Shown here in pieces: positions 1,655-33,053 of a stretch of 64,000 nucleotides of DNA (position 1 is the first letter of the stretch; each line of letters starts with the position of its first letter). Source of the DNA: Stegostoma tigrinum (taxonomy: Eukaryota); the NCBI RefSeq assembly GCF_030684315.1, contig NC_081391.1, forward strand, positions 13,555,342 through 13,619,341. The letters are read 5' to 3'. The notes beneath the pieces were generated by a model. That model did no database searches, was not told where the DNA came from, and saw only the letters and a program-made list of their open reading frames with translations. Both the position numbers and the translations under genes were made by a program.

Positions 1655-1840
1655 AGGTCAAAGATCATTCAGCAATTCCATCATCGACCAGTTGTCAACC
1701 GTGATTCGTTTCTGGATCCAGTTCCCATCCTGCACTGATTGGACGTGGCAACTGATCAATTGATTAACAAGAGTGATTGGCCATCACTGATGATGTCATT
1801 TCCTGCTTCATAAAAAGAGGGTCAGCCCCTGGGGTATAAA
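1655..1840 (+). promoter_or_regulatory. Proximal promoter of ferritin copy A
   Basis: DR1-like AGGTCAAAGATCA 1655-1667, two ATTGG (inverted CCAAT), ATCAATTGAT, TGATGTCA, TATAAA 1835-1840. The block is conserved upstream of seven copies. Confidence 0.75.
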
Positions 1841-1927
1841 TAGAGTCCCACGGGAATGATGTTGATTGTTCTTCCTAATTTTGTTATTTTGGTGGTGAGG
1901 AGAATAAAAGAAATTTATTGTCACAAG

Positions 1928-4900
1928 ATGGCCTCCCAGATCAGTCAGAACTATCACCAGGATTGTGAAGCTGCTGTCAACAAGCAGATTAATGTGGAGC
2001 TCACTGCCTCCTATCTCTATCAGTCTTTGGTGAGTGCTGTCTCTCGGGGTTAAACATATAAATCTGTTCTGTTGAAGTAAATTCTTTGCCTGGCCTCTAG
2101 TGAAGCTGACAATCTAGTAGATTGAGGTTTTGTGGCTCCTACCTAAATATCAGTTCAGGATAGAGGTGGTGTTACTATCACGATGGTGTAGGATACTGAT
2201 GTATGTTAACTCAGGTCCCAGTTGGCCTTCAGTGGTATCTGGAGGGTAAAAGCCTCTTGCTTTTGTTTTCTTTCTGACACAAGTTTCCTGACTTCATTTG
2301 CCTGATCTCTGTGGTGGTCCTAAACAAACATGCTGATTTTTTTTAACACTGACAATAACAATAACTTCCCTGTTGCAGTGGCCCTTGTTAGTCTGAACAA
2401 ACCTGAAGCTAGTCTGTGACTAGCATCTGTTTTAAGTAGATCTCCTTCATTGAGGCTGACTTGGCTTTACTTGTATTTATTGAAGATGTGGGTGTGGCCT
2501 ATCCCGTCCCTACTGAGAGTTGATCTGCTGTGTGTGAGAAATGTTGGATCCCCACTCTGCCCCTTCTCCACCCCACCCCATGCTGGGGCTGCTGGAATGT
2601 GCTGAGGCTATTAGCCCAGTGACAGTGAAGGAATGGAGGTTGTTCCCATATCATTTAGCTTGACCTAAAACAAAATGTCCCCTCTATCCCAGTGGTGATG
2701 TGCTTGTGCCCTTCCAAGGAGTAGACTGTGCTTGGAAGGTATGTGTTGAAGTAACCTTGGTGAGTGCTGCAGGGGACCTGGTAGGTAATGGACTCTGAAA
2801 GGAGGTGGTGAATGCAGTCCCCATGAAGTGGGCTGCTCTGTCCTGGATGGTGTCTGCTTCTTGCATGTTGCAGGTCCCCTTCTCCAGACACATGGAGAAT
2901 ATTCATCTCTCTCTGGGCTTGTGCCTGTTGTGAGGAAGTTGTCTTGTAATGAGGACTAAGTCCCTATAAGCCTCACTTGGGAGGTGGGACAGCTTTATTG
3001 GTGATCCAGTGGTTGGGGTTTAATCACTGTGTCCCAACTCTGTTGGCACATGCTTCCCAAGGATAAAATCCCGACTATCTTCTGCCATGACGTGTAACTA
3101 CCCACTTAAACCAGAGATTTTTGCTTGCCTGACTGTGGTTTTTGGATTTGTGGATTAAAGTAACTTTTCAGGAGTCCTTCCCCAGAATGTAACTCTTAGC
3201 TGATGCTTCCAATAGTGACGATTAGCTCTTAAACCCTTACATCGAATTGTGAACATGACAGTTTAGATATGAGTCACATGGGCTGAAAGCCGACAGGATT
3301 TTTTGCCTGTTTGGGTTAAGTCAGGGCAAGTGCTTTTCCAGGTTACTGTTTTCACTAGTGACATTATCTACAGGCCACTGATATTTGACATTTGATCATT
3401 TGTTTCAGTCATGTGACTTGGTGCAAGTTTCTGACAGCCTGAGTTTGCACTATTTTTAGGCAGAGCAATAACCCACTGCTGCAACGATCCAAAGGCTGTT
3501 ACTGGGCAGGCTTTCCTTGGCATTATCTTAGTGCTAAACATCATACTGAAGATAGCGTACCCGTGTAGAGTTAATGTGTACACTTATGTCCAAATCTCAT
3601 TGATCCTGGGTTTGTAGAAAACATTCTCCCTACTATTCATTGACTAGAACAAGGTTCAACATCTTTTTTGAAAGTTTACCTGAAAGGCAAAACACAGTGC
3701 CTTGTGGCTCCTCCATCCTGTGTACATCCTGTACGCCAGCTCCTGGCACTTCCTGAAACCCTGTTCAACCAGTAACTTCATCCAATTCTGTTGGAGATTA
3801 ATGAATAGAAGCATGAATTCAGCTCTGTCTCTCCACAAAGGCTGTGCCAGGCACTCCTGAGCTAATCACCAGTAGATTCAAACCAAAATAAAACAGTATT
3901 TTTGGTTCCAGGAGGAAGCTGGACTGTTGTGATTTTGCCCAGTTGCTGGTGAATTGAACAACACTGGGTTCACAATCTGTTCAGTGTCTGACACATGAGC
4001 ATGCCTTCTGTCAGTTTGGTTTGAGTGCTCAAGTAGTCTTGTAGTTGAGAACTGCAATGGGGAGTGAGCCAGTGATGTCGAATGTAACTTGAACTTGTTC
4101 TTCCAGATGTCCTACTTTGCCCAAGACGATGTTGCCCTCCCCCATTTCTCCCAGTTCTTCAAAGATCAGTTCCAGGAGAAGCGGGAACATGCAGAAAAGC
4201 TGCTGAAATTCCAGAATCAGCGTGGCGGCCGAGTCCTCCTCCAGGATGTGAAGGTTGGGGTTGGGTGGTGGGGGAGTGCAGGGTGGAATGGCTGCTCTTG
4301 CGGTGTCATCTCCAGTGACAAGATTTTCAGATCCTGAGCGAGTGTGGAAAGTTCTTTTGCTTGGCTTCCCTGTTTGCTCTCCTCCATCTCCAGTGTTTCA
4401 GCATTTATACAAGCCTGACTTCCATCAAACAACCACCTCAGCCTCACCTGCTCAAAGGACAAGGAAAACCCCAGCCTGTCCAATCTCTCTCCTCACAATG
4501 GATTTTCTGTCTCGGGGAAACAACCTGGGGACCCTCACCAGCACCCCCTGCAGTGCTATCCTGTCCTTCTGACTAGCGAGGCCAAAGATAGAATGCAGCA
4601 GAGGCCGGAAGAACAATTTTCATAAAATGTGTTCAAAGGACTTGTCCCTGTGCTGTTCCTCACAACCCTGCCCCAAACTAACACATGTTACTTGGCCTAT
4701 GTCCCCTTTCACACACAGTTTGCCTTGTGTGAGCATTGAGGGATCGATGATCCTGTGTTTATTGTAAGCACATTACTGCCCCCGACAATGAATTCAAGTA
4801 ATGATGGTTCTGACCATGCCGCTCGGGCATGTATGAGGCCACAAGCACAAGTGAGACTTGAACATCAGCCTTGTCAACCGGAGCTTGGGACACTACCGCT

Positions 4901-6136
4901 ACTTCCCCCACAGCCCTTGGGATTCACTCATGAATATCCTTTTTAAGACTCCAGCAGATGGACACTGGTGCAAATGACTAATCTGGTACATATTTATTCC
5001 CTGTGGTACAAGGATATGTTCCTGAACTTCCGGCTTCAGGTCAAGGATAAATGGGGCAAGGTGAAAGGAGTCACCAAGTAGCTAATGTTTTCTTTATCTG
5101 GACTTCAGGGATGGCACAGTGGCTCAGTGGTTGGCACTGTTGACTCAGTGCCAGGGGTACCAGTTTGGTTCTGGCCCGTGACGAGAGTTTAAACGTTATC
5201 CCAAAGCATAGCATCCCCACACAGTAGAAAAGAAGATTGGCAACTTGAAATGCAGGTTACACGAACAGGGTGGGAATGGGACCAGATGGGATGCTCTTCA
5301 GCAGTTATGGTCTCAGTGGGGTGAATGGCCTGCTCCCATGCTGCAGGGATTCTGTTTCTGAAGCTTACCTGTCCTTCTCTCCATCCATAGAAGCCAGAGA
5401 GGATTGACTGGGGTAACAGCCTGCAGGCAATTCAGGTTGCCCTGAATCTGGAAAAGAATGTGAACCAGAGTTTGCTGGATCTACACCAACTCGCCACAGC
5501 CCAGACTGACCCTCATGTCAGCTTCACCTCCTCATTCACATCACTGCTAGACCCTCAAGGTAACGTTTCATTGGTTGGTCTGTGTGGATTGGAAATTCAC
5601 TGAAGTAACACTTTCCATCCATTACTTTCCTGAACTATTGTAACATTGATCACTTGGGATCATACTGATTACAATGAGGTATAAGGGGAATTTGATCTAT
5701 AATCTAGTGGAAGTGCTGAAATGACGTTGGCCACTGAGTTCTTCATTAGTATCATTGCAGTGGAATGATCATTGTCCATCACAATCCAACTCAGCTCCAT
5801 TTCACAAACAGCAAGATGGAGCAGCTGACATGTTGTCCTCACTGGCACAAATTCTCCAGGTGTTAGCTCGCTTTTCAGGGCTGTCCAGAGCTAGTCATGG
5901 CTAAGTCTGTCTTGCAGTGGGAATTCTGAAATTGTCGTGGATAGTATAAATGTACCAAGTGTCATATTCCTCTGTTGCAGCTGTGTGACTTCCTGGAGAC
6001 TCACTATTTGGATGAGGAGGTGGAGATCATCAAGCAACTTGGGGACTACATCACCAACCTGAAGCGCCTGGGAGCCCCTGAGAATGGGATGGGAGAGTAC
6101 CTGTTTGACAGGCTCTCCCTGGAGGACAGCAGTTAG
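1928..6136 (+). CDS. Ferritin subunit, L/M-chain-like, copy A (176 aa)
   Basis: Exons 1928-2029, 4107-4253, 5391-5516, 5981-6136, with phase-0 GT-AG introns and the canonical vertebrate ferritin exon layout. Protein runs [18 protein letters not shown]...[11 protein letters not shown]. The ORF is intact but has several private substitutions. Confidence 0.9.
2690..2900 (-). mobile_element. Ancient LINE (L2/CR1-like ORF2 C-terminal) relic in intron 1, shared by the array units
   Basis: Minus-strand translation [12 protein letters not shown] resembles the LINE ORF2 C-terminal motif (KLDxIQxxAARxI). It recurs near 18900, 25740, 43480 and 50100. Confidence 0.5.
5107..5350 (+). mobile_element. tRNA-derived SINE in intron 2 (orthologous copy in every unit)
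   Basis: gggatggcacagtggctcagtggttggcac A-box-like head followed by a degenerate B-box. Same position near 15040, 21470, 28505, 37210, 45785, 52888 and 61400. Confidence 0.65.
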
Positions 6137-7794
6137 TGTGGCCTGGAGTACTGTCTGCTTGGTCTGAATGTATTCCCTACTTCACCCTGGACAACCTGTC
6201 TCCTTCCAAGGAGAAGGGGCTTGTAGCAAACAATGTAATGGCTGAACCAGCTGAGTGGAAATGAATGAAATGTATTGATGTTGCTTATTGTCCATCATTG
6301 AGACCCTTGATATTAAAGAGCTTTTGAGAGCTTCAAGCCTGTAATTTTGGCTAATGAAATTATTAATTTGACAGAATATTTCCCTGGTCTTCCCTCCAAC
6401 ACCACCCCAGCATCAGTCTCGGAATTCCCGTGGAACTTCCTCTAAGTTATGAATCCAAGTTATTCCTCCAGCCAGAACTTGAGGTTGGGGCCTGCGGGGT
6501 GTCAAGTCACTTTGTACTATTATCCCACACCCAGGTATGATGAATACAGGTGCAGCTAAAATTTTCATTGCTTTCGAAAGAGAAAACACCCCTGTTTGGC
6601 CGAAAGAAAGACTTGACACCCACTTTCACAGAAACAGGGCTGTAGGATGCTTTATGTTCATGTCTAGTTTGCTTAGCAATAGCTTCCCTGTCAACCTCTG
6701 TCAACCTCCACCAACCGAGACTGATTGCTAAAGTCCACACAAATCACAAGTTGATGCCAATGTAAATTCTGTGCCAGCTGGCTCAGCTTGCCTCAACAAG
6801 AGCTTAAGGGAAGAGATCCAGCAGCGTCCCCTCTCTAGCCTTGTGGAGGAACCAGCAATGCTGGGAGCAATAAAATTAAACTTAGCAACTGGGATCTGAC
6901 ACACCTGGTCTATTCTGTTCAAATCAATGTTATTACTTTTTCCTGACAGTGCATCCTAGATTCACTCAGACCCAGTTGAGGTTCAAGCCAAGACCAGCCC
7001 TGTGGCCTCCTGATCCCCACCACCAACTGCCTGCCTCCGGACAGCCATCAGCAGTTACTCACAATGACCAGTTCATTTGTTCCTTCGCCTGAGGAACATG
7101 CGCTGCCCTCCCAGGCGATATGGATTAAATACCCATTGTAGCTCGACAAGAAAGCTCACACGGGGGGAACCATTTCCCAGGAGTAATCCAAAGCTGTCCT
7201 AATGTGGCTTTGCTCCGTTTACTTCCTTGCTCTCTGCCAAGTCTTGGTCAAAAACCCCACCACGCCTAGTAATAAACTTCAGGCCAGCCAGCCCAGAGAT
7301 GGGAATATTCAGCACAAGTCTGCTTGAAAAAATTCACCTGAACTGGATGCACTTAATGGCACCTACAGCAGGATAATAGTGACCTGGGAATAACACAGCA
7401 ACGCTCCTGGTTAAATGCTGCCATTTGATTGGCTCTTGCTGCTCAAGCCAGCATTGAGCGCACTAAGCTGCTCCCTTGGTTCCTCTGAGCTTCCCCCACG
7501 GGGAGGGTTACTCCTGATGCAGGTTGATTTCACCCGATCACATTGAAGGAGCAGTGTGACTCAGGGAGGAGAACTGGAGATGCTGACTTTCCTGAATGGC
7601 TGCTTCCTTTATCTTTCGAGGTGTCAGAGATCGTGGTTTAGGGAGGGGGCTGTCAGAGACATCCTGGGGAATGTTTCAGGGAGTTTTGTAGCGAGTGCAC
7701 ACTGCAGCCTTCACTGAGGTGTGGGTCTTTAAGGCACTGAATGTATTTGTTCCACCACGTAGAGTTTTATTTTAAACCATCTTGAGTCTTGGGT

Positions 7795-8100: not shown

Positions 8101-8226
8101 AAAGTTACAAAAAACAGGAACACTCTGTTGCATAGAATTAGAGTGAATGACTCGTTTCTCACGGAAACAGACCCTTCGGTCCTACCTGTCCATGCTGACC
8201 AGATTTCCCAACCTGACATAGTCCCA

Positions 8227-8418
8227 AGATAATAAAATGTGAGGCTGGATGAACACAGCAGGCCAAGCAGCATCTCAGGAGCACAAAATCAGAGACGAAG
8301 GGTCTAGGCCCGAAACGTCAGCTTTTGTGCTCCTGAGATGCTGCTTGACCTGCTGTGTTCATCCAGCCTCACATGTTATTATCTTGGAATTCTCCAGCAT
8401 CTGCAGTTCCCATTATCA
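8227..8418. mobile_element. Palindromic Penelope-derived mini-element with 14-bp target duplication
   Basis: Inverted arms ggctggatgaacacagcaggccaagcagcatctcaggagcac / gtgctcctgagatgctgcttgacctgctgtgttcatccagcc, flanked by ctgacatagtccca (8213-8226) and ctgacattgtccca (8419-8432). Confidence 0.85.
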
Positions 8419-9093
8419 CTGACATTGTCCCACTTGTCTGCCTTTGGCCCATATCCTTCTAAACCATTCCTTTCCATGCAAATCTCCAAATGTCATTTAA
8501 ATGTTGTAATTCTAACTACCTCCACCACTGTCTCTGACAGCTCGTTCTAACAATGCACACCACCTTCTGTATGAAAATGTTGCCCCTCATGTCCCCATCA
8601 AATCTTACCCCTCTCCCCTCAAACCGATGCCCTCTAATTTTGGACCCCACCTGACCCTATCACAGCATGCTTTTTATATACAGTCAATCTTGAGTGTGCC
8701 AATGGCAAGGCTACATTTAGTGCTCAGCAACTGTTACACTTCAGGAGATGGTGATGAGCTGCTTATTGCAGTCCACCTGGTGTCGGAGAGACCGGAATGA
8801 TGCTGCTGCTGTTGCTGAGGAGGGGCTTCTGGGATCTTCACTCACAAACACTGATATTATTCCAAGTCAGGATGGTGATGGATTTACTTGGAGCTGCTTC
8901 AGTGTCACTGGGGCGGCATTGAGCTGGAAAATTGCAAACTACTCCAGCATTATTCCCAACTTCAGTCTTATCGATGGTGAACAGACTCTGGAAAGTCTGA
9001 AGTAGAGTTATTCACAACAGAATTCCCAGACTCTGACTTGGTCTCAAAGCCATGAGCACATGAATTAGGATTGACCTCTGCCCATGGTTTCTT

Positions 9094-10494
9094 AGAAAAT
9101 AGAACCTAGAACAGTGCAGCACAGTTCACGCCCTTCAGCCCACGATGTTGTTTCGAACTTTTATCCTAAACCCAAGGACGATCTCACCTCCACTACCTTA
9201 TATCCATCTGCTTATCTAATAGCCGCTTAAAATCCCCTAACGAGGCCGACTCCACTGCACTCTCCGGCAATGCATTCCACGCCCCAGCCACTCTCTGAGT
9301 AAAGAACCTACCTCTGACATCCACCCTATATCTACCTCCACTCACTTCAAAACTATGCCCCCTCATAATAGCTAACTCCATCCTAGGAAAAAGTCTCTGG
9401 CTGTCATATCTGCCTATACTTATGATCATTTTGTACACCTCTATCAAGTCACCTCTCATCCTTTGTTCTGAAGAGAAAAGCACTCGTTCTCTCAACCTTT
9501 CTTCGTAAGACCTTCCCTCCATTCCAAGCAACATCCTGGTAAATCTCCTCTGCACCTTTTCTAACACTTCCACATCTTTCCTGGAATGAGGTGACCAGAA
9601 CTGGACACAATACTCCAGATGTGGCCGAACCAGGCTTTTGTATAGCTGGAGCATAACTTCACAGCTCTTGAAATCAATCCCTCTATGAATGAAAGCTAAC
9701 ACACCACATGCCTTCTTGACAACTCTATCCACCTGACTGGCAGCTTTCAGGGAACTGTGGACATGAACCCCGAGATCCATCTGCTCCTCCACACTGCCAA
9801 GAATCTTTCCGTTAACCCTGTATTCTGCTTTAAAATTTGTCCTTCCAAAAGGAATCACTTCACGCTTTTCAGGGTTAAACTCTGTCTGCCACTTCTTAGC
9901 CCCGCTCGGCATCCTATCAATGTCCTTTTGTAACCTGGAACAGCCGTCCACACTATCCACAAGTCAAATCACCTTCGTATCTTCCAAAAACTTACTAATC
10001 CGCCATTCCACTCCTACATCCAAATCATTTACCAAAATCGTAAATAGAAGAGGACCCTGAACAGACCCTTGAGGTACACCACTCGTAACTGAGCGCCATG
10101 TTGAATATTTTCAGTCAACTGTCACCCATGTCTTCTATGGGTCAGCCAATTCTGAATCCAATCTGTCTCATTTCCCCCGTCACATGCCTCCTGACTTTCT
10201 GCATGAGCCTGCCATGGGGAACCTTATCAAACGCCTTACTTCAATCCATGTATCCCACATTCACTGATCTACCTTCATCCACACGTTTGGTCATCCCTTC
10301 AAAGAATTCAATCAGATTTGTGAGGCATGATGTACGCCTCACAAATCCACACTGGCCATCACAAATCATACTGTGCCTATCCAAGTGATCATTAATTCTG
10401 TTTCTTACAGCCCTTCCCATTAATTTGCCAACCACTGACATAAGACTAGCTGGCCTGTAATTTCCAGGGTTACCCCATTCCCTTTTTTGAACAC
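9094..10494 (-). mobile_element. CR1-clade LINE, 5'-truncated, minus strand
   Basis: ORFs 9193-9960 and 10241-10522 give RT motifs (NYRPASLMS, SCLTNLIEFFE, LEYCVQFWSP). The 3' tail agaaaatagaacctagaac is at about 9094-9112. Confidence 0.95.
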
Positions 10495-11275: not shown

Positions 11276-11462
11276 AGGTCAAAGGTCAGTCAGCAATTCC
11301 ATCATCGACCAGTTGTCAATTCTGATCGTTTTCTGGATCCAATTCCCATCCTGCACTGATTGGACGTGGCAGCTGATCAATTGATGAATGAGAGTGATCG
11401 GCCATCACTGATGATGTCATTTCCTGCTCAAGAAAATAAAGGGCTGCTGCTCGAGTATAAAA
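11276..11462 (+). promoter_or_regulatory. Proximal promoter of ferritin copy B
   Basis: Perfect DR1 AGGTCAAAGGTCA 11276-11288, ATTGG, ATCAATTGAT, TGATGTCA, TATAAAA from 11456. Confidence 0.75.
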
Positions 11463-11558
11463 ATTGTCCCAAGAGAGCGATGTTTATGGTGTAGTTGATC
11501 ATCTTTCTAAGTTTGTTATTTGATTTTGGAGGAAAAGGAAATCTATTTTCTTCATAAA

Positions 11559-14500
11559 ATGGCCTCCCAGATCAGTCAGAACTATCACCAGGATTGTGAA
11601 GCTGCTGTCAACAAGCAGGTTAATGTGGAGCTCACTGCCTCCTATCTCTATCAGTCTTTGGTGAGTTTTGTCTTGATGGAGTTGAAATTAAATCTATTCT
11701 GCAAAAATGAGCTGATCCTCTTGTTTCTAATTAACTTCATAGTCTTGTAGATTTGAGGAGTTTAAGTTTGCACCTTGAAAAATCATTTTGGGATAAATGT
11801 AATGCCCTTTGGTGACAATGGATTTTGATATTGATGTGCAGTATCTAATTCACCAGCTGGGATTGAGTGATAGATGGAGGGCAAATTGTTCTGTCAATTA
11901 TTTTACAATTTACTGCCAGGTCTCTGCCTGGTGGTAACTGTCGTTTTCCTCCCCAGAATTGACCAAACTTTACTAAAATTAGATGTAATGGTGTTGGGAG
12001 TTGTAGGCACCCCTTGGCTAGTCATCCTGTAACATTTTAATTTACCTTGATCACACTTAATTTGTGCTCTGATCCTAAATACACATGACAGTTTCCATTC
12101 TGTGATGGAGAATGATGGCAGTGACTGGCTTCTCTGAGCATATGCACTTGTAACTTGCATTGAGGAGGCCTCAGATGTGGACTAGTTGGCTTTCTGCATT
12201 CTCAGTTCATGAATGGACTGTTAGTGGCCAGGAAGTCACTTGTTGTCCATTCCTCCAATAGATCAATACCCTCCTGTGAGTGCATGCACAGGGTGTCTGG
12301 AATAACCTGAGGTCTTCACTTCACCAAAAAAGGTGAAGAATTGGAGTTTCAAATTCCCACGGTATGGGAAATAGTGCCTTTCTCCAGGGAGCACTGTGCC
12401 TATGGCCTCTCAAAATGGCAGGCTATAATGGTTTGTAAATGTTGAAGCAGCTTTTGAAGGCTGCTAGATACCTGGTAGATAGTGGACACTGGGAGTGCAT
12501 TCACTCACTCCCTTCAATGAGGTGGGCTGCTCTGTCCTGCATAGTGTCTACTTTGTGCATGTTGCAGCTCCACTTCTTGGGAAAAAGGGAGAATATTCAT
12601 CCCTCCATGGGGCTTATGTCTGAGAAGCATTCTCTTCCCACTCTGAGGATGAAATCCCTGTACCCTTCCCTTTAGCAGGTGGGAACAGCTATCACCAATA
12701 AGCCTGTTGGGTCTTAACTGTTAGTGGTGTCCCATATCAATTGGGCAGCATGTGCCCAAACAACCTACTATTGTATATCTGTGAGATGCAGCTACCCGAG
12801 AAAAGCCAGAGAAATTTACATGACTGTTTTTTGACAAAAGAAACTTCTCAGCCTGATCAGTTGGAACTAGATAACCTGCTCTAACAAGGTGTAGAGCTGG
12901 ATGAACACAGCAGGCCAAGCACCATCAGGGGGAGCAGGAAGGCTGATGTTTTGGGCCTGGACCCTTGAGAAATGGGGAGGGGAAGGGGTCCCTGAAATAG
13001 GAAGGGGTGGGGAGGTGAATGGATGAGGGATAAAGAAACAGGTGGTGAGGAGACTCCAGTCTGAGGTAAGGATGGAGCCAATCAAGTCAAGTGAGTTGAG
13101 TAGGCCTGTCCGTGGGGATGGGATTTGAGGTGGCGGGGGTCGGCGGGAGGTGGGGTGGTGTGGGGAAGTAGGTGGGAGGAAGGACGGACCAGTCGGGGAG
13201 GTGGGAACTAGCTGAGCTGTGATTGGGGGAAGGGAGATCTTTCAGCTTAAGTCCTCACTGATACCATTGGGCTGCAGGGTTCCCAAGCAGAATACAAGGT
13301 GCTGTTCCTGCAACCTTTGGGTGGCATTGGAGGCCCAGAATGAACATCAACTGTCCCCTCCTGCCCCTCTGAAGGGGAAGTAGTTTGTGACTGGGAGGTG
13401 CAGCTGCTGGTCACGAGCCCAGCATAGGCACTCCACAAAGTGGTGTCAAGCCTCTGCTCGGATTTCCTGATGTAGAGGAGGCCACATTAGGAGCAGTGGA
13501 TACAGCATACCTAACTGCAGGTGTGTAGGTCCACTTCATCTTGATGTGGAAGGTCTTGGGGCCTGGGATGAGGGGAGGTGTAGCACAATCTGTGTGGCAG
13601 GAAAAAAGCCCTGGCTAGTGGAATGTACAAGGGAATCAGTGGTCTCTCCAGAAGGCAGCTAAGGTTGGAGAGGTAAAACATGTCTTTGTCAGATTGTAGA
13701 TTGTATAAGTGCCAGAGGATGATGCACTGGGTCCTGGCATTGAGGTGGTACTGAAGGATGAGAGGATTCTGTTTTGGTTGTGTGAGGGATAAGATGCAAG
13801 ACCGGTTGTGTTTTTCTTCCACTAAAGGGAAGTTACGCTCCCTCGGAAAACGAGGACATCTGGGATGCCCAGGAGTAGAATGCCTCCCCTCGGGGCTGGA
13901 GGTGAAGGAATTGGATTAGGGGATGGCGTTTTCCTTCCACAGGAAGGTGGGTAAGGTGTATTCTAGGTAGCTGTAGGAGTCAGTAGGTTTGAAATATATC
14001 AAAGATTGATAGACAAACTTAAGGTTGAGGTAGAAGGCTCTAATGAATTAGAGGAACCGTTCAAGCTCCTTTGTGGGATGTAATGGAGGAAGATGTGGAG
14101 TTTATGGCCCATCTCCCTGTAGAAGGATTGTTCCACAAATCCTAACAGAAGCAGGCACAGCCTGGGCCCATGCACGTGCCTATGGCCACCCCCTTCCTCT
14201 GTAGGAGGTGGGAGGAATTGAAGGAGAAGTTAGGGGTGAGGATGAGTTGGCTAGTGGACAAGGTTGTTGGTGAATGGGGACCAGTCAGACCTGCAGGATG
14301 AGAGAAGCAGAGGGCCTTCGGCTATCTCCATGGGGAATGGATGAGGTTGGAGGCTGTGGGTGGGAGGTCATCTCCAGTGAAGTTGTAAATGGACTAGGAG
14401 ATGGTTTGGTGGTCAGGGGTGGAGTCATGATGAAGGGCGGGGTGGTAGGAGGTATCGGCTGCTCTTCCACACAAGTATATGTGGCACTCCAGCTCCTGGC

Positions 14501-16131
14501 ATTTCCTTAAACCCTGTTCAGTCACGAACTTCATCCAATTCTGATGGTGCTTAGAGTGGAAATGCTCTTCTCTCTACAGACAAGAACAGGCATGGTCAAT
14601 TCACAGGTTTTGGTCAAGGAATTTCAAGTTTGCCTGGTTACCAGGAGGAGGCGAGGGTTGTTTTTGATGATCCTTGAACTGGAGCTACTGGCTAATTGGA
14701 CAATGGTTCTCATCCACCTTGATGTATTTAAAAAAACATGTCATGTTTATTGACTTCTCAATTTGATTGAAGGCTAAACCAGTCATGTCTGGCACCAATT
14801 GCATAATGTTTAATGGTTGTAACTTGTTTTCTCCCAGATGTCCTACTTTGACCGGGATGATGTTGCCCTCCCCCATGTCTCCCAGTTCTTCCAAGATCAG
14901 TCCCAGGAGAAGCAGGAACATGCAGAGAAGCTGCTGAAATTCCAGAATCGGCGTGGAGGCAGAGTCCTCCTCCAGGATGTGAAGGCTGGTGTTGGGTTTT
15001 TGGGGTGGGGGGAGTTGGGTGGTAGAGAGTGGCTGCTCCTCAGGGATGGCACAGTGACTCGGTGTTTACCATGCCTGCCTCAGTGCCAGGGATCCAAGTT
15101 TGGTTCTTGGTTCTAGGCTCCAGTGAACGACTGGAGTTTACTTGTTCTTGCCATGTCCACATTGGCTTCACGGTTCAATGACGTGTGGGTTAGAAGGATT
15201 GCCATTGAAAATGCAGGGTTACAGGAATAAGGTGGGATTGTTCACAGAAGGGACTTGTAGCGACGAACGCAGTGGCCGTACCTGCTGATCGGGGATGAAT
15301 AAAACGATGTAGTGACCTTTGTTATTGTCACCATGTGTCAAATAGCCTGTTCCCATGCTGCAGAGATTCTGAAGCTTACCTGTCCTTCTCTCCATCCCCA
15401 GAAGCCAGAGAGGGCTGAGTGGGGTAACAGCCTGCAGGCAATGCAGGTTGCCCTGGATCTGGAGAAGAATGTGAACCAGAGTTTGCTGGATCTACACCAA
15501 CTCGCCACAGCCCAGACTGACCCTCATGTGAGCTTTCCCACCTCCTCGTTCTGATCACTGCTAGGCCCTCAGGGCAACACCTCATTGGTCTTTTGTAGAT
15601 TAAAATTCACTGGGATACTTTGATCACAATATCATATCTGAACAGTATGTTCATTTAATCAACATTAAAACAGCTCAGCAATGAGCTGAAATGGGAATTT
15701 GGATTCAGTACCACGAGTGATGTTGGCCACTGAATTCACTTTCAGGTCCACTTGCAGTAGAATGATCATTGTCTGTCACAGTTCAGCTCGGCTCCACTTC
15801 ACAAACAACAAGGTGCATCTGGAATGTTACTGTCCTCCCTGGCGCAACATCTAGATGTCAGTGGCTTTTCCAGCTGTCGAGAGCCAGTTATGGTGGGGTC
15901 TGTTTCGCAGTGGGAATTCTGAAAATTTCCTGGATCATGCAAATGTACCAAGTTGCCATAATTCCTCTGTTGCAGCTGTGTGACTTCCTGGAGACCCACT
16001 ATTTGGATGAGGAGGTGGAGATCATCAAGCAACTTGGGGACTACATCACCAACCTGAAGCGCCTGGGAGCCCCTGAGAATGGGATGGGAGAGTACCTGTT
16101 TGACAGGCTCTCCCTGGAGGACAGCAGTTAG
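11559..16131 (+). CDS. Ferritin subunit, L/M-chain-like, copy B (176 aa if the GC donor of intron 2 is used)
   Basis: Exons 11559-11660, 14838-14984, 15402-15527, 15976-16131. The intron 2 donor is AAG|GCTGGT, where other copies have GTTGG. The terminal poly(A) signal is AGTAAA at 16259-16264. Confidence 0.7.
12870..14460 (-). mobile_element. Penelope-like retroelement fragment (RT plus GIY-YIG endonuclease, decayed) in intron 1 of copy B
   Basis: Minus-strand remnants [15 protein letters not shown] (PLE RT motif QxxGxAMG), CGLLYI (YIG) and [17 protein letters not shown] (GIY-YIG C-terminus). It ends in the same inverted terminal arms as the mini-elements. Confidence 0.85.
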
Positions 16132-17720
16132 TGTGGCCTGGAGTACTGTCTGCTTGGTCTGAATGCATTCCCCACTTCACCCTGGGCAATCTGTCTCCTT
16201 CCAGGGAGAAGGGACTTGTAGCAAAGAATGTAATGGCTGTACCAGCTGAATGCAAATGAGTAAAATGATGTGTTTATCTTGGTTCTTGTCCATCATTCAG
16301 ACAGCTGGACGCTGCAGGTTCTCACCAATAGGCCTATGGGAAGAGATATCAGGCTCTGCTTTCTGCCCAGGTGCAGGAAACAGCTCAGCTGGGACTGAGA
16401 TGAGTTCAACCTGACTCGTATCCTCCCAATGGGCCCTGACATGACCAGCATATTCTGTTTTACATTTGCTGCCTTTATCTCATGTGGACACAGCCTAAAG
16501 TTACTGGGAGCCGGTGAAGGTTCAAACCAAGGCCAGTACTGGTGGGCTGAGACCTACCCTGCCTTGTTACAGCCTACTGTAGTTGACAGCACTGAACAGT
16601 TCATTCCTCTTGTTGTGGGAGTTAAATATGCTGCTACCCTGAAGGGATCTTGGTGTAATTACCCTTAGCCTCGAGTCAATTCTCCTAGGAGCATTCTGAA
16701 GCTGGCCTAATGTGGCTTTTGTCAGTTTACTTTCTCTGACCTGTTCCAACACCTTCATTGCTTTTCTCACCCCTCCCACCACCCCACTCCTAGCAATAAA
16801 CTTCCACCCTGCCAGTCTACAGCTGGGAAAATTCAGCCCCAACATTGACAGCACCCATATTCCATGGAGTTAGCTCAGGAAATTATCTTGAACTGTTACA
16901 TGCTCATGTATGAGCTCAATACCACTTCGAGCACCATCACTGTGTCTTTTGGAGTAACACAGCAACACTCGTGGTTCAATGCTGCCATTTGATTGGCTCT
17001 TGCTGCTAAAGCCAGCATTGAGCACACTAAGCTGCTCCCTTGGTTCCTCTGTGCTTCACACACGCTGAGGGTTACTCCTGATGAAGGTAGATTTCACCCA
17101 ATCACATTGAAGCATCAGTGCGACTTGGAGAGGAGACCGTGAGATGCTGACTTTCCTGTACGACTGCTTCTTCTATCTTTTTGAGGTGTCAGAGAGATGA
17201 TGGGTTGAGGAGGGGGTGATCAGAGCCAGCCTGGGGATTGTTCCAGGGAGTTGTGTAGCGAGTGCACACTGCAGCTTTCACTGAAGGTGTGGGTCGTTCA
17301 GGCACTGAATGTATTTGTTCCACTACAAGAAGTGTTTTATTTCAAATAATCTTGAGTCTTGGCTGTAGAATCTGTGAATCCGTGCAGTGCAGGAAGAGAT
17401 TGTTCAGCCCATTTAGTCTGCACTGATCCTCTGTCCTCTGAACAGCATCTTGTTCAGACACACCCTGTCTTCTTGCCCCCATCTTTCTATCCCACAGCCA
17501 TTGCAAAGTAAACTGCATGTCTCTGGACTGTGGGAGGAAAGGAACCCACACAGACACGGGGACGATGTACAGCCTCGTCAGAGTCGCCCATGACTGGAAT
17601 TACATGTGGGTCCCGGGCACTATGCAGCAGCAGTGCTCATCAGTAAGATACCATGCCCCCGAAAGGAACAAAAACAGGAGCAGGTGGTGAGGAAAGTAAA
17701 GCAAGCTTTTCCTTTATAAG

Positions 17721-20700
17721 ATGAGTTCCCAGATCAGTCAGAACTGTCACCAGGATTGTGAAGCTGCTGTCAAAAGGCAGATTAATGTGGAGCTCACTGC
17801 CTCCGATCTCAATCACTCTTTGGTGAGTGCTGTCCCTGTGGGGTTAAAACTTGATCTATGTAGTTGAAGTAAATGTTTTCTCTTGAATTTAATTAACTGG
17901 ACCCTCTCTCTTTGTAGATTGAGTTTTGTAGTCCTTTCCTAAATATTAATTCAGGATAAGGGCAATGTTACTATACCAATGGGGTTTGATAATGATGTAC
18001 TCTGAAGCTGGGTCCCAGTTGGCCTTCAGAGATATGTGGAGGATGAAGTGTCCCTGGAGAAATTTGCCAGTTTGGTGTTTGAATTGGCAGTAGATGTCAT
18101 TCCCTCTAAGATTACCAAATGTTGGTAGGGTTACTTCAGAAAGGTATTATATTGATCAGACTGTGGGACTAGAATCACCCACTGGCTAGTTACCCTCTTT
18201 CTGACAGGTTTAAGTATCTGATTTTATATTTGCTTGCTTTTGTGGTGATACTTAAATATCAATTCTGATATTGACAATGATAATTCCCTATTGCAGTCTG
18301 CTGTGGCTAATCTGAGCAAACCTACTTGAGGTTAGGCTGTGAGTGACTGGTATCTGACTTTTTAAAGTAGATCTCAGCTGAGGCCTGCTTGGCATTTTGC
18401 ACTCCCATCATGAGATGGGTGTGGCCTATCCCTGAACCTGTAGAAAGTTGATCTGCTTTAGTGTGTGGCGTGTTGAAGCTTCTGCAAACCATGTTTGCCT
18501 CCTGCCCCCTCACCCACACCCTGCATCCCCTCTAGCTGCTGGAGTCTGAGATTCATGGTCCAGTCTCTATGCCATCCTGATAGGGAACAAACTGTCCCCT
18601 TTAGCCAGGTGGCAGTGAACCTGTAACTTTCCAATGGGTAGAATGTTTCAGACAGTAGGAACAGCAGATGCTGGAGAATCTGAGATAACAAGGTGTAGAG
18701 CTGAATGAACACAGCAGGCCAAGCAGCATCAGAGGAGCAGGAAGGCTGATGTCTTGGGGCATGACCCTTCTGAAGGTGGGCCTAGGCCCAAAACAGCAGC
18801 CTTCCTGCTCCTCTGCTTGGCCTGATGTGTTCATCCAGCTCTACATCATCGTATCTCAAGGGGTAGAATGTGTTTGGAAGGTGTGTGTTGAAGTAACCTT
18901 GGTGAGTGCTGCAGGGGACCTGGTAGATAATGGACCCTGAAAGGAGGTGGTGAATGCAGTCCCCATGAAGTGGGCTGCTCTGTCCTGGATGGTGTCTGCA
19001 TCTTGAATGTTGCAGCTCCACTTCCACAGACACATGGAGAATCTTCTTCACTCTCAGCTTTTGTCTGTTAGAAAGAAGATGTCTCATGACAGATGGATGA
19101 AGCCCGTATAAACTCCATTTGGGAGGTGGGTACAGCTTTCATTGGTGAGCCAGTTGACGGGTTTTAATTACTGACCAGGGTCCCATTTCCCTTGGGGAAC
19201 ACGTGTGCCAATTATAAAATCCTTCCTATTCTCTCCTGCCACAGCTTGTCCCTACCCCGTTAAACAGACAAGAAATTTTGTTTGACTGCTTCTACATGAA
19301 GACAATAACTTCCCACCAGGCTTCCTCGACAACAAAACTCTTAGCTCCTGTTTCAAATATCAGAAGAATAGCCCTTCATAAACCTCAAGGCATTGGATTG
19401 TGAATATCTCGGTTCGGAAGTGAGTCACATATGGGTGGACAAACAACAGAACGGTGCCAGCTGGGATAAGCCAAACTTTGTTGTCCAGCTTTGTGTTAAC
19501 TAGTGACGTTAGATCAGCCATTATCTGTAGATACAGGTCACATTGGTTCTTTCTCTCCAATATTTGACCTTCCCTCAGTTTGATTCAATTTGTTTTGTTC
19601 ATGTGACCCTTGTTCTCCCCCTTCTGGATGTGAGTGCACTAATTTTAGTGTGCTATAAACTAAACTGCAACAATCCAGAGGCAGTTACTGGGTAGGTTTT
19701 CCTTTGCACTATCTTGTTGTCGCTTTCTCTCATTCGCCTCTATTATATCTTGTAGTCATAAAATATACCGTACATTCAATCTCCCTGGTTTTGAGGCCAC
19801 AGAAACCTTGCTTCCTCCTGGTTATATTGTTACAGCAGTGTCTAACATGTATTTCCATGCCAGCCCCAAAGGAGCAATAGTGTTACAGCTCCCTACTCAA
19901 GTATAGCCTGCACTCCAGCTCCTGGTGCTTGTTTCAGCTGTTTGTTTGGCACTAATATTGTCCAATTCGAATGAAGGTTAGTGAGTGCAAACATGGCTGG
20001 ATACAAGAAGAGCTATAATGCTGTGCCAGGCAGCCTGAGCAATTTACTGTTTGTTTTAAGCCAAACTTTTGCCAGTTTCCAACAGGAAATTGGGATTGTT
20101 CTGTTTGATCCCAGTTGAAGGATCTGCTGGACAGCTGGACATCATTGGGTTCTCAAACATGTTCACATACCAGGCAGTTGGTTTGCTGCAGAAGGCTGAA
20201 CTAGAATTTGGAGTCAGTGCTGTGTTTAATGGGCTTTAACATGTTATCTCCCTTCCAGATGTCCTACTTTGACCGGGATGATGTGGCCCTCCCCCACTTC
20301 TCCAGGTTCTTCAAAGATCAGTCCCGGGAGAAGCAGGAACATGCAGAGAAGCTGCTGAAATTCCAGAATCAGCGTGGAGGCCGAGTCCTCCTCCAGGATG
20401 TGAAGGTTGGAGTTGTGTGGGAGGGTTGCAGCTGTGGAGGAGAGAATGGCAGCTCTTGTGGTGCTGCGTCCTGTTGGGATGTGAAAATCCTATTTTGGCC
20501 TGGCTTCCCTGTTTGATTTCTTTTGAAGGCAGTTTCTAAACAAGCCCTATTGTCCACCATGTCTATGCTGCCCACAAACATCAAACTACATTAACACAAT
20601 TTCCTGCACTTAGTCCACAGCCGACTATCTTCTGGCATGAAGAAGTTGTTGAGATTAGCCTTCAATGTTGCTGGAGTAACTGCCTCCACTGACCCCACAG

Positions 20701-22449
20701 GTAATGCATCCCATACCTCTCCCACCCTCGACTGGGTGGGTGGGTCCTCCAATCTCCTCAAACCTGTGCCATCTGGTCTTCATGTCTGCCATGGGGACTG
20801 TGTATTGTCCATCCTCCCTGATCTTCCACACTTCCATCAGATCACCATCCCAGGCTATCCAACCTCCCTCTCATCATTGTATTTTTGTTGTCTTTTTTTG
20901 CTTCCATCTTGGGCCAACATCCTGATGACCCTCACCTGTACCCCCTGCAGTGCCACCTTGTCCCTCTGATGGTGGTTCTGGTCACCACACTACATTCCAT
21001 CTTTGGTCTGGCCAATGCTGCCATGTTTGTGGCAAGACTCATCCTTTCTACTGAGCCCCAAATCATGGAGACCAGCATCATGTCAGCCCCTTCCCCACTC
21101 TGTCTACCTTTGCTGAACCTTGAGGGATGGACTTGGGCATTTGTTGCTTGTCCCTTTTACTGTAAGCACATTGCTCCCTTCAATGAATTAAATAGTAGTG
21201 ATGTCTGATCATCCTGCTCAGACATGGATGAAGCCACCAGCACAGGTGAGACATAGATGCCTGGCCTGCAAGGTGCAGATTGGTACTCTACCTCAAGAGC
21301 CCTTGAGACTAAGGTGTCAATGTCCTCATCTAAATGCCAAATGGGCACTGGTGCAAACAGTTGAACTTTGTGTGAAATAAATCCCTAGCCCACAATGACT
21401 TCATGCTTCAGATCAAGGATAAATGGAGCAAAGTGAAGTCACTTCACAAGTAATGAATGTGGGTTTTAGGGGTGGCACAGTTGCTCAGTGCCAGGGACAC
21501 AGGTTTAGCTCTGGCCTCTGATGACTGGTGATTACATGTTCAGGTTTCTTCCTACAGTCCAAATATGGGCAGGCTGGGTGAAGTAGCCATGGGGGAATTG
21601 CAGTGCAAATGGCTCAGGTAAATCTGAGATCTTCTTCAGAAGGTTGATTGCAGACTCAATGGGCTGAATGGCCTGCTCCCATGCTGCGGCGAGTCTCTGA
21701 TTCTGAAGCTTAACTGTTCCTGTTTCCATCCTCAGAAGCCTGAGAGGGATGAGTTGGGTAACAGTCTGCAGGCAATGCAGGTTGCCCTGGATGTGGAGAA
21801 GAATGTGAACCAGAGTTTGCTGGATCTACACCAACTCGCCACAGCCCAGACTGACCCTCATGCAAGCTTCACCTCTTCATTCTCATCACTGCCAGGCCTC
21901 CTCAACTTCATTGGTTGGTCTTTGTGGAGTGGAAATTCACAGACGTAACTTTGTCCAGATGCTACATTGTACCTTTGTCATCATAATTATGATGACAATG
22001 TTAAACTGCTCAACACCGAACTGAAATAGGAATTTGGATTACAGTCTGGTGGGAATGCTGATGTGATTTTTGGCTGCTGAATTGGGGATTGTTGCACTAT
22101 ACAATACAACTTGGAGCTCTTTAAGAAGGTGAGATGAAGCAGCTGAAATGTGCTCACTGGCACAAATTCTCCACCTGTTAGCTAGATTTTCAGGGCTGTC
22201 TAGAGCTCGTTATGGCTCAGTCTTTTTCAGTAGGAATTGTGAAGTTGTCTTGGATAGTATAAATGTACCAAGTGTCATATTCCTCTGTTGCAGCTGTGTG
22301 ACTTCCTGGAGACTCACTATTTGGATGAGGAGGTGGAGATCATCAAGCAACTCGGGGACTACATCACCAACCTGAAGCGCCTGGGAGCCCCTGAGAATGG
22401 GATGGGAGAGTACCTGTTTGACAGGCTCTCCCTGGAGGACAGCAGTTAG
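17721..22449 (+). pseudogene. Ferritin copy C, probable pseudogene (promoter deleted)
   Basis: Exons 17721-17822, 20259-20405, 21736-21861, 22294-22449. No DR1/CCAAT/TATA block upstream. Exon 1 encodes [34 protein letters not shown] (Y to C, D and N changes). W to L in exon 3, and the intron 3 donor is CAT|GCAAGC. Confidence 0.8.
18647..18856. mobile_element. Palindromic Penelope-derived mini-element in intron 1 of copy C
   Basis: Same inverted arms, flanked by caatgggtagaatgt and caaggggtagaatgt (about 15-bp duplication). Absent from the other units. Confidence 0.8.
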
Positions 22450-22574
22450 TGTGGCCTGGAGTACTGTCTGCTTGTTCTGAATGCATTCCCCACTTCACCC
22501 TGGGCAACCCGTCTCCTTCCAGGGAGAAGAGGCTTGTAGCAAAGAATAATGGCTGTACCAGCTGAATGCAAATG

Positions 22575-22580
22575 AATAAA
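22575..22580 (+). terminator. Polyadenylation signal AATAAA (copy C)
   Basis: About 125 nt after the stop codon. Equivalents at 29646, 38337, 46939, 54029 and 62524; variant AATGAA in A (6264) and AGTAAA in B (16259). Confidence 0.7.
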
Positions 22581-24378
22581 ATCATTTATGATCTTGCTTA
22601 TTGTCCATCATTCAGAGCACTGGATATTTTGGGAAATGTCTTATTGAGCTTGAAGGCAGTTCTCTTTCTGTAATTTGGCTGACCCAATTACTAATTGGAC
22701 ATGAAAACAACCTTTCAATGGATGTATTTACTCACTCTCGATCATTGCACAGTAACTAGACGGACTTCCTTTTTCTCATGACACAGGAGACTCGAGACTT
22801 TCCCCTCTAAGTAGGATGAGGTTGGTGTTTCCCCAATTGTGGGGTGGAAAATCTTCCAGAGGTCAATTAGTACACTTCTGGATACTCTAGGTTCAATTGT
22901 CGATCAGAACTTGTCTTCCTTTTTGAGACAGGAAGTTCCCGTACCTGCTCGAAGGGATAAACCAGACGCCCATTCCATAGGATGTGGGATATCTACGTTC
23001 AATGCCAGGTTTCCCTTCCTACAGGCTCCCCTCAGTCACCACGAGCAATGAGATTTGTCACTCGGACGATAATCTAATGGGAAGACAAGTCTGTGATTTG
23101 GAGGCTGGATCAGTTGACAAAATGCTGGCGGAAGTAGATATATCAAGTTCTGCTCTAAATCCAGTTGCAGGAACCAGCTAAGTTAGGAAAGACACAGGCT
23201 TGACTCATCTGGTGTAACCTCCCCAGTGAGGCCCTACCATGACCAGTATTTTCTATTCTCAGCGTTGTTGTTTTTGGTCTCCTGTGGATGTAGCCTAGGG
23301 ATCTTGGAGCCGGTTATGGATCAAAGCAGGACCAGCACTGGAGGCCTGTGACCTTCTCTTTCTCCCCATCTCTTGTTCCAGCCAACTGCAGTTGCACCCC
23401 CTACCCGGTTAAATCCCTCTTGACATTTCTGAGGGAGGGTGGCTGGACTCACTGTAGGTTGGCTTTTTCATTCCTCCATCTGAGTAACATCGACCGCTCC
23501 ATCTTTGCTCAAGAAGGAGTCAGTTCACACTGGGGCTGAGCTTTTCCCAAGAGCAATCCAAAATTGTCTTTCATGTGCCATCCTCCCCTTCTTCCTCCTC
23601 CTTTCTCCACCACACCCCACTTCTCTCCCAGCATTCACTCCAACAAGCTACCCAGCCCAGATCTGGGAAAACTCAGCCCAAACGTTCACAGAAGCCATTT
23701 ACCAAGAGGTCAGCTGGAATTCCCCTGATCTGTATGGGATTACAATGTCTGCTCTCGATGCTAACAACAGGAAGTTGTAGTTTTTGCTGTAGAATCCCTC
23801 AATGCGGGCAGATGCCATTCAGCTGATTAAATTTGTAATGACCTACTGAGCAACCTCCTGCTCAGGGACACCCTGTTCCCTTAATCCCACATTTCCCATG
23901 GCTAATCTAACAAATCCGAATGCCCCTTGTCACTGTCAGCAATTATCTTTGCCAATCGACTTACTCTGCAGGCCATTGGACGAGGGGAGGGAGTCGGAGC
24001 AGATGGTGGAAACCCATGCAGACACAGGGAGAATGTGCAAACTCCACTCATGTTGCCAAAGGCTCGAATTGAACCAGAGTCCCTGTGGCTGTGACGTAAC
24101 AGTGTTAACCACTGAGCCCCCATCACGCCCAAAAGTACCAAACAAAAGGGGGAGGCTGTTGCACAGTCATCAAGTCGTACATCATGGAAATAGACTCTTC
24201 TGCCCACACAGTCCTTACACACCAGGTTTCCAAAATTCTGTAGTGCCATTTGGCCCATCTTCCTCGAAGCCATTCCTTCCCCCATAAGTGTCCAAATGTC
24301 TTATCAAAGTGGTAATTATACGTCTATTTTATTCTCATTTTCAGCTTGATAAACTTATACAATTTGTTCTTGCACAGG

Positions 24379-24559
24379 AGGTCAAAGGTCATTCAGCAAT
24401 TCCATCATCCACCAGTTGTCAATTCTGGTTTCTGGATCCAATTCCCATCCTGCACTGATTGGACGTGGCAACTGATCAATTGATTAACAAGAGTGATTGG
24501 CCATCACTGATGATGTCATTTCCTGCTCAAAAAATGAGGGTCTTCTCCTGGAGTATAAA
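24379..24559 (+). promoter_or_regulatory. Proximal promoter of ferritin copy D
   Basis: Perfect DR1 24379-24391, two ATTGG, ATCAATTGAT, TGATGTCA, TATAAA 24554-24559. Confidence 0.75.
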
Positions 24560-24656
24560 TAGAGCCCAATGGCATTGCTATTTTAGGTGTAGCTGATTTT
24601 CTTTCTATATTTATAATTTGGTTTTGTTGGATAAGGAAAGCTGTTTCTATCACAAA

Positions 24657-29516: not shown

Positions 29517-30282
29517 TGTGGCCTGGAGTACTGTCTGCTTGGTCTGAATGCATTCCCCACTTCACCCTGGACAACCTGTCTCCTTCCAAGGAGAAGGGAC
29601 TTTTGTAGCAAAGAATGTAATGGCTGTACCAGCTAAATGGAAATGAATAAAATGATGTGTTGATCTTGCTTATTGTCCATCATTCAGAGCTCTGAATACT
29701 TTGGGTGATAGCTCTTGCTTGAAGCCAATTCGTTTTCTGTCATTTGATTGGTCCAATTTCTAATTGGATTAGGCAACCCTTCACAGAATAGCTCACTATC
29801 CCCACATTAGAATGTAACTCGATGGAGTGTTTTTTTTGGTTAGTCCTGTGGAAATTGAAGGTGTTTCTCCTCCAAATAGGATAAGGTTGGAATTTGTCAA
29901 TTGTGGCATTGGCTTTCTTCTAGAGGACAATTAGTGCACTTCTGGAGATGGTGGGTTCAACTGTAGCTCAAAGCAATTGTCTTCCTCTGGTGACAGGAAG
30001 TTCCCACACCTTCTAAATAGACTTCTCTACCCAGCCTGATAGAATTTGGGATAGTGGTGTTCAATTGCACATTTCCCTTAATCTCTTCCCCGCCTCAGCC
30101 ATCCTGCGTACTCAATTATTGCCTGAATGATGACAGCAACACAAAGTGAAGACAGCCCTTTATCTACTGACCCAGCTGCCTGATCACCAAGGTCTAAAGG
30201 AAGAGGCCCAGCAGGCTCTGATTTCAATCCAGCTGGCGGAAGCAGCAGAGGTGTGAAACAATCTCAACTGCCTGGTATATCT

Positions 30283-30467
30283 GAGATAATGGGAACTGCA
30301 GATGCTGGAGATTCCAAGATAATAAAATGTGAGGCTGGATGAACACAGCAGGCCAAGCAGCATCTCAGGAGCACAGGCTCTGATGAAGGGTCTAGGCCCG
30401 AAACGTCAGCTTTTGTGCTCCTGAGATGCTGCTTGGCCTGCTGTGTTCATCCAGCCTCACATTTTAT
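30283..30467. mobile_element. Young palindromic Penelope-derived mini-element with perfect 14-bp target duplication
   Basis: tgcctggtatatct at 30269-30282 and 30468-30481. The paralogous site at about 54653-54666 is empty. Confidence 0.9.
30371..30420 (+). ncRNA. Minimal type I hammerhead ribozyme motif (PLE-type)
   Basis: CUGAUGA (30380-86), stem II GGG-UCUAGG-CCC, GAAA (30400-03), palindromic ACGU stem III, GUC cleavage triplet (30405-07), stem I ggcu/agcu. Confidence 0.7.
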
Positions 30468-32778: not shown

Positions 32779-32965
32779 AGGTCAAAGGTCATTTCAGCAA
32801 TTTCATCATCAACCAGTTGTCAATTCTGATTGGTTTTTTGACCCGATTCCCATCCTGCGCTGATTGGATGTGGCAGCTGATCAATTGATTAACAAGAGTG
32901 TTTGGCCATCACTGATGATCTCATTTCCTGCTTCATAAAATGAGTGTTGGCTCCTGGAGTATAAA
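32779..32965 (+). promoter_or_regulatory. Proximal promoter of ferritin copy E (variant)
   Basis: Perfect DR1 32779-32791, ATTGG, ATCAATTGAT, TATAAA 32960-32965. The second CCAAT and the TGATGTCA are altered (gtgtttggcc, tgatctca). Confidence 0.7.
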
Positions 32966-33053
32966 TAGAGTCCCACGGGAGGCATGTTTACTGTTGCTCT
33001 TAACTTTGTCATTTTTGTGGTGAGGAAAATAAAGCAAGTGTTTCCTTTATAAG

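Follow-up and report, generated by a model that had tools for sequence, protein, structure and literature searches.

Tandem zebra shark ferritin genes with predicted 5′ leaders that lack an iron-responsive element and with lysine at ferroxidase-centre residue 62

Ferritin gene expansions have been described in the Greenland shark, where the genome study Sahm 2024 (10.1101/2024.09.09.611499) counts 155 'FTL' and 179 'FTH1' copies and reports the largest cluster as ovary-specific. Yang 2026 (PMC13214024) gives 59 FTH1b copies in this species and more copies in sharks generally, places FTH1a and FTL separately on another chromosome, reports expression of some FTH1b copies in fin and blood, proposes a link to ferroptosis, and infers functional similarity to FTH1a. 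Ferritins outside regulation by the iron-responsive element (IRE) and the iron regulatory proteins (IRPs) are also known: PMC7760355 describes FTMT in this way, and a work cited elsewhere does so, by its title only, for schistosome ferritins. PMC7760355 also presents FTHL17, a partly nuclear ferritin of germ cells encoded in mouse by six tandem genes, as one in which E62K suffices to abolish ferroxidase activity, and PMC1488847 describes ferritin as abundant in vertebrate ovaries and eggs. Here, we analyzed 64,000 nucleotides of the zebra shark Stegostoma tigrinum (contig NC_081391.1, positions 13,555,342 to 13,619,341; hereafter the window), which hold a tandem ferritin array, and asked how the 5′ leaders and the encoded residues of its genes compare with these systems.

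Self-comparison and exon probes revealed a tandem row of eight ferritin genes, all on the + strand of the window, with ATGs at 1928, 11559, 17721, 24657, 33054, 42660, 49021 and 57238 (copies 1-8). Each has four coding exons, seven of the eight keep an open frame of 176 amino acids, and two exon peptides matched PDB ferritins at E ~1e-19, placing them in PF00210. A promoter with a TATA box is present in all copies except copy 3. The initial annotation had described the interval between TATA box and ATG as AT-rich and free of a CAGTGN loop, which held for every promoter-bearing copy: the distance is 93-103 nt, AT content is 62-71% vs ~54% in the window, and CAGWG does not occur in any of the seven intervals. 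In copy 1, the interval 1835-1930 runs exactly from the TATA box through the ATG (1928-1930). Without a 5′ IRE, IRP1 and IRP2 cannot block translation in low iron. The reading that we lean towards, by a small measure, is that these genes encode a transcriptionally set, IRP-independent and ferroxidase-dead subunit that is probably germline, parallel to FTHL17, with the oocyte as the likeliest site and a role as L-like partner of the products of array genes that retain E62. The features of the array are as follows.

1835-1842, + strand: TATA box of copy 1, TATAAATA.
1865-1927, + strand: predicted IRE-less 5′ leader of copy 1, 63 nt, its start placed at TATA+30.
1928-2029, + strand: copy 1 exon 1, coding; the intron joint 2028-4106 is GT..AG in contigs from related sharks.
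4107-4253, + strand: copy 1 exon 2; the AAG codon at 4179-4181 is K62 (E in H and M chains).
5391-5516, + strand: copy 1 exon 3; E107 retained; donor of the following intron 3 annotated as GC..AG.
5981-6136, + strand: copy 1 exon 4 to the stop; the GAG codon at 6017-6019 is E141 (Q in H and M chains).
11456-16131, + strand: copy 2, TATA box to stop; leader without IRE; protein identical to P0154.
17683-22449, + strand: copy 3; promoter replaced ~40 nt 5′ of the ATG at 17721; frame open; Y34N.
24554-29516, + strand: copy 4, TATA box to the end of exon 4; leader without IRE; exon 3 short by one base.
32960-38210, + strand: copy 5, TATA box to stop; leader without IRE.
42567-46813, + strand: copy 6, TATA box to stop; leader without IRE; 5′ part a 92-95% duplicate of copy 1.
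48918-53901, + strand: copy 7, TATA box to stop; leader without IRE.
57144-62397, + strand: copy 8, TATA box to stop; leader without IRE.

No canonical IRE core was found on the + strand of the whole 64 kb using a scan written from the SIREs rules in PMC2896125. Since 30 Markov samples gave a chance expectation of just 1.2 cores in 64 kb (range 0-4), this zero is informative only because an IRE is expected a priori in ferritin mRNAs. The Infernal search proposed in the initial annotation was run, and neither Rfam IRE_I nor IRE_II matched, whether the window was searched with the gathering score or with E≤10 or 1480-2030 was searched by itself; the CAGWGH loop on a 5-bp stem with a C bulge that defines IRE_I (RF00037) in a 5′ untranslated region (UTR) is missing. 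A custom model built from 12 fetched IREs and run with filters off gave a best score of 12.6 bits in the window (E 0.64) and no match within any leader; two held-out controls, which share their core with a training sequence, scored 38-39 bits. Among 45 fetched animal ferritin contigs used as controls, Rfam IRE_I was found in 5 of the 20 searched (46-57 bits), and the SIREs-style scan found cores in 14 of 31. A generic scan for paired triloops returned 112 matches in the window; three lie less than 400 nt from an ATG, and each of these is over 300 nt upstream of it with a fold above -0.5 kcal/mol. An upstream exon carrying an IRE had been named as what would overturn the claim, and a canonical one is excluded for copies 2 and 4-8, because their full spacers lie in the window and were scanned. 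For copy 1 just 1.9 kb of upstream sequence is in view, yet copy 6 duplicates copy 1. A possible relic half-IRE, TTTCCTGCTTCA at -129, which resembles the IRE 5′ arm, was discarded because local scores were at chance level: against three vertebrate IRE cores, shuffle p was 0.12-0.93 over five promoters with a best score of 23, and 25 of 213 background tiles scored at least 22 and 6 of 213 at least 24.

These results bear on the mRNA only as far as the leader is correctly placed. From the position of the TATA box, transcription is predicted to start ~30 nt downstream, making the leader a 5′ UTR of 63-73 nt. We rejected the alternative that the leader is the 3′ end of an intron, as no conserved YAG acceptor lies close to the ATG in the seven copies. 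Several RefSeq models from whale and zebra sharks have N-terminal extensions that resemble translated leader (P0155 and P0128, by eye), and P0008, a chimeric model of 340 amino acids, aligns over 81% of the leader plus exon 1 and seems, by eye, to be spliced into the leader; the region further upstream of it is also without an IRE. For basking shark P0021 the BLAST match did not reach into the leader, and the likeness is by eye and in a different frame. Back-translations of P0155, P0128, P0021 and P0090 allow no canonical IRE core. In spliced orthologous contigs from related sharks, presumably RNA, exons are joined across each of the three introns at GT..AG boundaries. None of the four sequencing runs compared yielded contigs over the promoter and leader, which is uninformative.

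The initial annotation had also pointed out that the leader diverges between units whose promoter and exon 1 are conserved. This contrast stands, with identity between unit types (18 pairs) of 0.61 in the leader, 0.90 in the promoter core and 0.99 in exon 1, but it marks no special signal, as the leader has only drifted to the level of introns (0.59 for intron 1 and 0.70 for intron 3; 0.90 for the 3′ UTR). Identity at the intron level indicates that the leader is unconstrained, as expected without an RNA element. Four-fold sites differ at 0.035-0.081 only, so the exons have probably been homogenized, which would exaggerate the contrast between leader and exon. pN/pS was below 1 in all 21 copy pairs (range 0.19-0.72).

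Exon 1 (1928-2029) and exon 4 with the 3′ UTR (5981-6270) are near-identical between unit types (0.99, 0.99 and 0.90). Amino-acid differences per codon comparison amount to 39/294 and 25/252 in exons 2 and 3 (4107-5516) and to 3/204 and 6/306 in exons 1 and 4; this excess points either to gene conversion that is uneven or to a diversifying pressure acting on helices B-C.

The seven translatable copies carry E27, Y34, E61, K62, H65, E107 and E141, except that copy 3 has N34. Residues 62 and 141 are E and Q in H and M chains, so that the H/M set of E27, Y34, E61, E62, H65, E107 and Q141 is replaced by E, Y, E, K, H, E and E in six of the seven. All 47 fetched proteins of 176 amino acids at ≥77% identity have K62, combined with E141 in 33 and with Q141 in 14; E62K is shark-wide, and Q141E was seen in carpet sharks. 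These proteins form a clade from Heptranchias to carpet sharks that includes Heterodontus and Mustelus (support 99/96 and 100/99), with lamniform members in further trees. The 3-fold channel residues D131 and E134 are retained in 7/7 copies, and the ferritin helices are present in an AlphaFold model (pLDDT 86) of P0006, a protein 98% identical to that of copy 6. The glutamates of L-chain nucleation, which we take to be at H-numbering 57, 60, 61 and 64, are incompletely represented (D/H57, Q/R60, E61 and E64 vs four E in the L chain L009).

As a separate observation, residue 19 (H numbering 22) is K instead of R in six of the seven copies. P0035, an array protein of the E62 type, has K as well, whereas dispersed shark ferritins have R. 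We take R at this position to be an NCOA4 contact, in which case array ferritins might resist ferritinophagy.

Compared with described ferritins, the genes most resemble the shark FTH1b and 'FTL+FTH1' clusters, which are likewise tandem multi-exon ferritin genes, and the window copies are members of the shark FTH1b tandem array, in its K62 subclass, in which one of the key ligands of the ferroxidase centre is lost. Tetrapod FTL shares K62 and E141 with them (reptile and mammalian-type L fetched) but keeps an IRE (L009, 57 bits), whereas in the shark copies E27 and H65 are retained and E60 is absent. In one tree the K62 clade was sister to reptile L at 99/81, which the others did not resolve. 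With the seven ferroxidase columns removed, it grouped with the E62 H-type of the shark array at an unstarred 85/90, the L clade not being rejected (AU p=0.43). Orthology to FTL was not upheld when diagnostic columns or taxa were changed. FTHL17 shares E62K, the germline association and, in mouse, tandem copies, but it carries E61D and is X-linked and mammalian, whereas E61 is unchanged in the shark genes, which group as a clade of sharks only in trees built without FTHL17; they may function as FTHL17 does without being FTHL17 genes. We presume that FTHL17 lacks both IRE and introns. M and H (FTH1a) chains are alike in length (176 aa) and ~66-73% identical, and RefSeq names the shark proteins 'middle/heavy subunit-like', but E62 and Q141 are retained in these chains, and an IRE is present in the teleost-like H and M contigs that were fetched. 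FTMT, which escapes the IRE/IRP system as the window copies probably do, differs in being intronless, mitochondrial and ferroxidase-active. The comparison with housekeeping FTH and FTL in the initial annotation was therefore not quite apt: the genes are a K62 array subclass, and non-IRP or germline ferritins such as FTMT and FTHL17 were already known, which means that the array does not represent a novel type of system.

The promoter-bearing copies share the elements listed here with coordinates for copy 1; the names DR1-like, Y-box-like and ETS-like are labels of our own assumption.

1655-1667, + strand: DR1-like nuclear-receptor repeat AGGTCAAAGnTCA, 7/7 promoters.
1689-1694, + strand: E-box CAGTTG, 7/7 promoters.
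1735-1742, + strand: inverted CCAAT or Y-box-like element CTGATTGG, 7/7 promoters.
1749-1754, + strand: E-box CA(A/G)CTG, 7/7 promoters, CAGCTG in 4/7.
1773-1780, + strand: second inverted CCAAT GTGATTGG, 4/7 promoters.
1797-1805, + strand: ETS-like element CATTTCCTG, 7/7 promoters.

An ATCAAT element is conserved as well. The promoter pattern had no match in metagenome contigs. With a start ~30 nt past the TATA box, the mRNA would have an unconstrained AT-rich leader of 63-73 nt, and because such a leader is free of an IRE, ferritin output would be set by promoter and copy number and not by cytosolic iron. The likeliest use would be bulk, iron-independent synthesis of an L-like subunit in oocytes or ovary, and the K62 subunit would assemble together with E62 array products, whose ferroxidase centre is intact, to form a maternal store of ferritin. 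The claim that these genes have escaped iron-dependent translational control is thus well supported with regard to the loss of 5′-IRE/IRP repression, provided that transcription starts ~30 nt after the TATA box, and it does not extend to other levels of iron control.

A number of observations weigh against this interpretation. Two orthologous spliced contigs carry 106 and 150 letters past the aligned part, which begins 10 nt before the ATG; both extensions exceed the leader predicted from the TATA box and could hold an IRE. Their origin may be adapter, a minor upstream start, a copy that bears an IRE, or a leader that is longer or has diverged, and such 5′ extensions can be inflated, because one in the same run carried adapter. 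Back-translation, a weak test, permits an IRE core in three of 12 N-terminal extensions (P0008, P0048 and P0127), and 16 SELEX loops were covered solely by the generic scan. The subunit has just 2-3 of the four L-chain nucleation carboxylates. Ovary specificity comes from the Greenland shark, in which it is not split by K62 and E62, the window's orthology to the Greenland cluster being itself inferred, and the fin and blood expression of FTH1b noted above points away from the ovary. The oocyte reading of the promoter motifs is our presumption, the literature search for it returned no supporting papers, and liver or gut factors may fit equally. The cytoplasmic polyadenylation element (CPE) is missing from the 3′ UTRs of all eight copies, for which reason cytoplasmic polyadenylation was also rejected as a substitute control.

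Several of these points would suit a somatic IRE-less ferritin of liver, gut or blood, or a stress-induced one, acting as an L-like heteropolymer partner and not as an oocyte product. The DR1-like repeat and the ATCAAT element, which we presume to be HNF4 and ONECUT sites, are conserved in the promoter, a CPE is missing, fin and blood of the Greenland shark express FTH1b copies, and spliced K62-type contigs occur in runs from two studies whose tissue is not stated. We nevertheless regard a somatic product as unlikely, as the largest cluster is reported to be ovary-specific, and hundreds of copies would suit a burst of demand better than housekeeping. That the array is a birth-and-death family under relaxed constraint, in which IRE and ferroxidase centre have decayed and most copies do little, seems improbable to us. 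Two of the eight copies are indeed damaged (copy 3 promoterless, copy 4 frameshifted), pN/pS reaches from 0.19 to 0.72 with many amino-acid differences in exons 2-3, and the low divergence of four-fold sites vs introns indicates homogenization, not selection alone; but K62 is fixed across shark orders, the promoter core is at 0.90 vs ~0.6 in the adjacent leader and introns, the D131/E134 channel is kept in every copy, and the fold of P0006 is predicted to be intact.

We give little credence to the possibility that iron still regulates the mRNAs by way of a non-canonical IRP site in a longer leader, or that the family retains an IRE-bearing founder copy beyond the window. The unaligned extensions of 106 and 150 letters would leave room for it, and control IREs of vertebrates lie 164-256 nt before the ATG; yet the + strand, spacers included, has no canonical IRE, the three generic triloop matches are distant and barely fold, and one extension of the same run carried adapter, so that extensions can be inflated. 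Very improbable, in our view, is a protein without a role in iron storage, such as a structural, nuclear or regulatory apoferritin-like cage resembling FTHL17. It shares E62K with that germ-cell-expressed, tandem (in mouse) and partly nuclear protein, and its nucleation site is incomplete, but it retains the channel residues, and ferroxidase activity in heteropolymers could come from E62-intact paralogs located on the same S. tigrinum contig.

Beyond the K62 genes, we tentatively propose, with more doubt than confidence, that the whole shark array, which numbers hundreds of copies in some species, is an IRE-free, oocyte-promoter-driven amplification with its own H-like (E62) and L-like (K62) pair, providing maternal ferritin for very large eggs, and, with the same reserve, that this pair arose independently of tetrapod FTL and FTHL17. 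In basking shark P0090, of the E62 array type, the N-terminal extension looks, by eye, like the translation of a TATA box located ~69 nt 5′ of the ATG and has no window permitting an IRE, hinting that E62 array genes may also have short IRE-less leaders. If the proposal is true, the expansion would be reproductive and not an iron-responsive adaptation to ferroptosis or longevity. Two Greenland shark genome papers highlight the ferritin expansion, and one connects it with longevity, ferroptosis and a flexible regulation of iron, treating the paralogs as functionally alike; should a large subclass lack both the IRE and a working ferroxidase centre, that reading would need revision, and copies called 'FTL' may be a convergent shark invention. 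For the K62 subclass, the functional similarity to FTH1a suggested by Yang 2026 is contradicted by K62 and the missing IRE. Text searches found neither 'IRE' nor 'ferroxidase' in the main text of Sahm 2024 or Yang 2026, neither 'ferroxidase' nor 'iron-responsive' in five PNAS supplement files, and no mention of ferritin in the 2025 Yang preprint. PMC5568229, PMC13701976 and 10.64898/2026.05.15.724572 contributed nothing further about the array, our search returned no literature on IREs of shark ferritins, and we have not found IRE loss combined with an L/FTHL17-like residue change reported for the published array.

With regard to individual copies, the copy 2 protein is 100% identical to P0154 (XP_059496766.1) of S. 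tigrinum RefSeq, whose models lie on a 26.9-Mb contig with dozens of ferritin models, E62-type models among them; the other six translatable copies share 166-175 of 176 residues with fetched proteins. The seven promoter-bearing copies fall into only four unit types (copies 1/6, 2, 4/7 and 5/8) because of recent block duplications. Copies 4 and 7, and likewise 5 and 8, are siblings through a recent tandem duplication with a ~24 kb period (21655-39813 vs 45989-64000, 96.7-97.8% identity), which also left copy 6 as a mosaic of the types of copies 1 and 3. The sequence replacing the copy 3 promoter is homologous to spacer elsewhere in the array. The missing base in copy 4 exon 3 (28774-28898) may be a frameshift or an assembly error, the latter because copy 7, its 97% duplicate, is intact.

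Among the S. tigrinum models, P0137 is a relative of copy 3 (172/176), which carries Y34N plus other changes. GC donors replace GT in copy 2 at intron 2 and in copy 3 at intron 3 (sites 5517, 14985 and 21862 compared), and intron 3 of copy 1 starts with GTCAGC where most copies have GTAAGC. AATAAA lies ~125-130 nt past the stop in copies 3-8; copies 1 and 2 lack it (positions 6312 and 16259), having ATTAAA further down and AGTAAA. Broken LINE-like reverse-transcriptase fragments lie 5′ of or within several copies (1-1470, 9093-10493, 33646-34423, 40761-42200 and 57837-58605). A short palindromic dispersed repeat, probably MITE-like, recurs at 8224-8425, 18650-18839, 24845-25005, 30284-30468 and 49210-49370, with sub-threshold matches to miRNA models.

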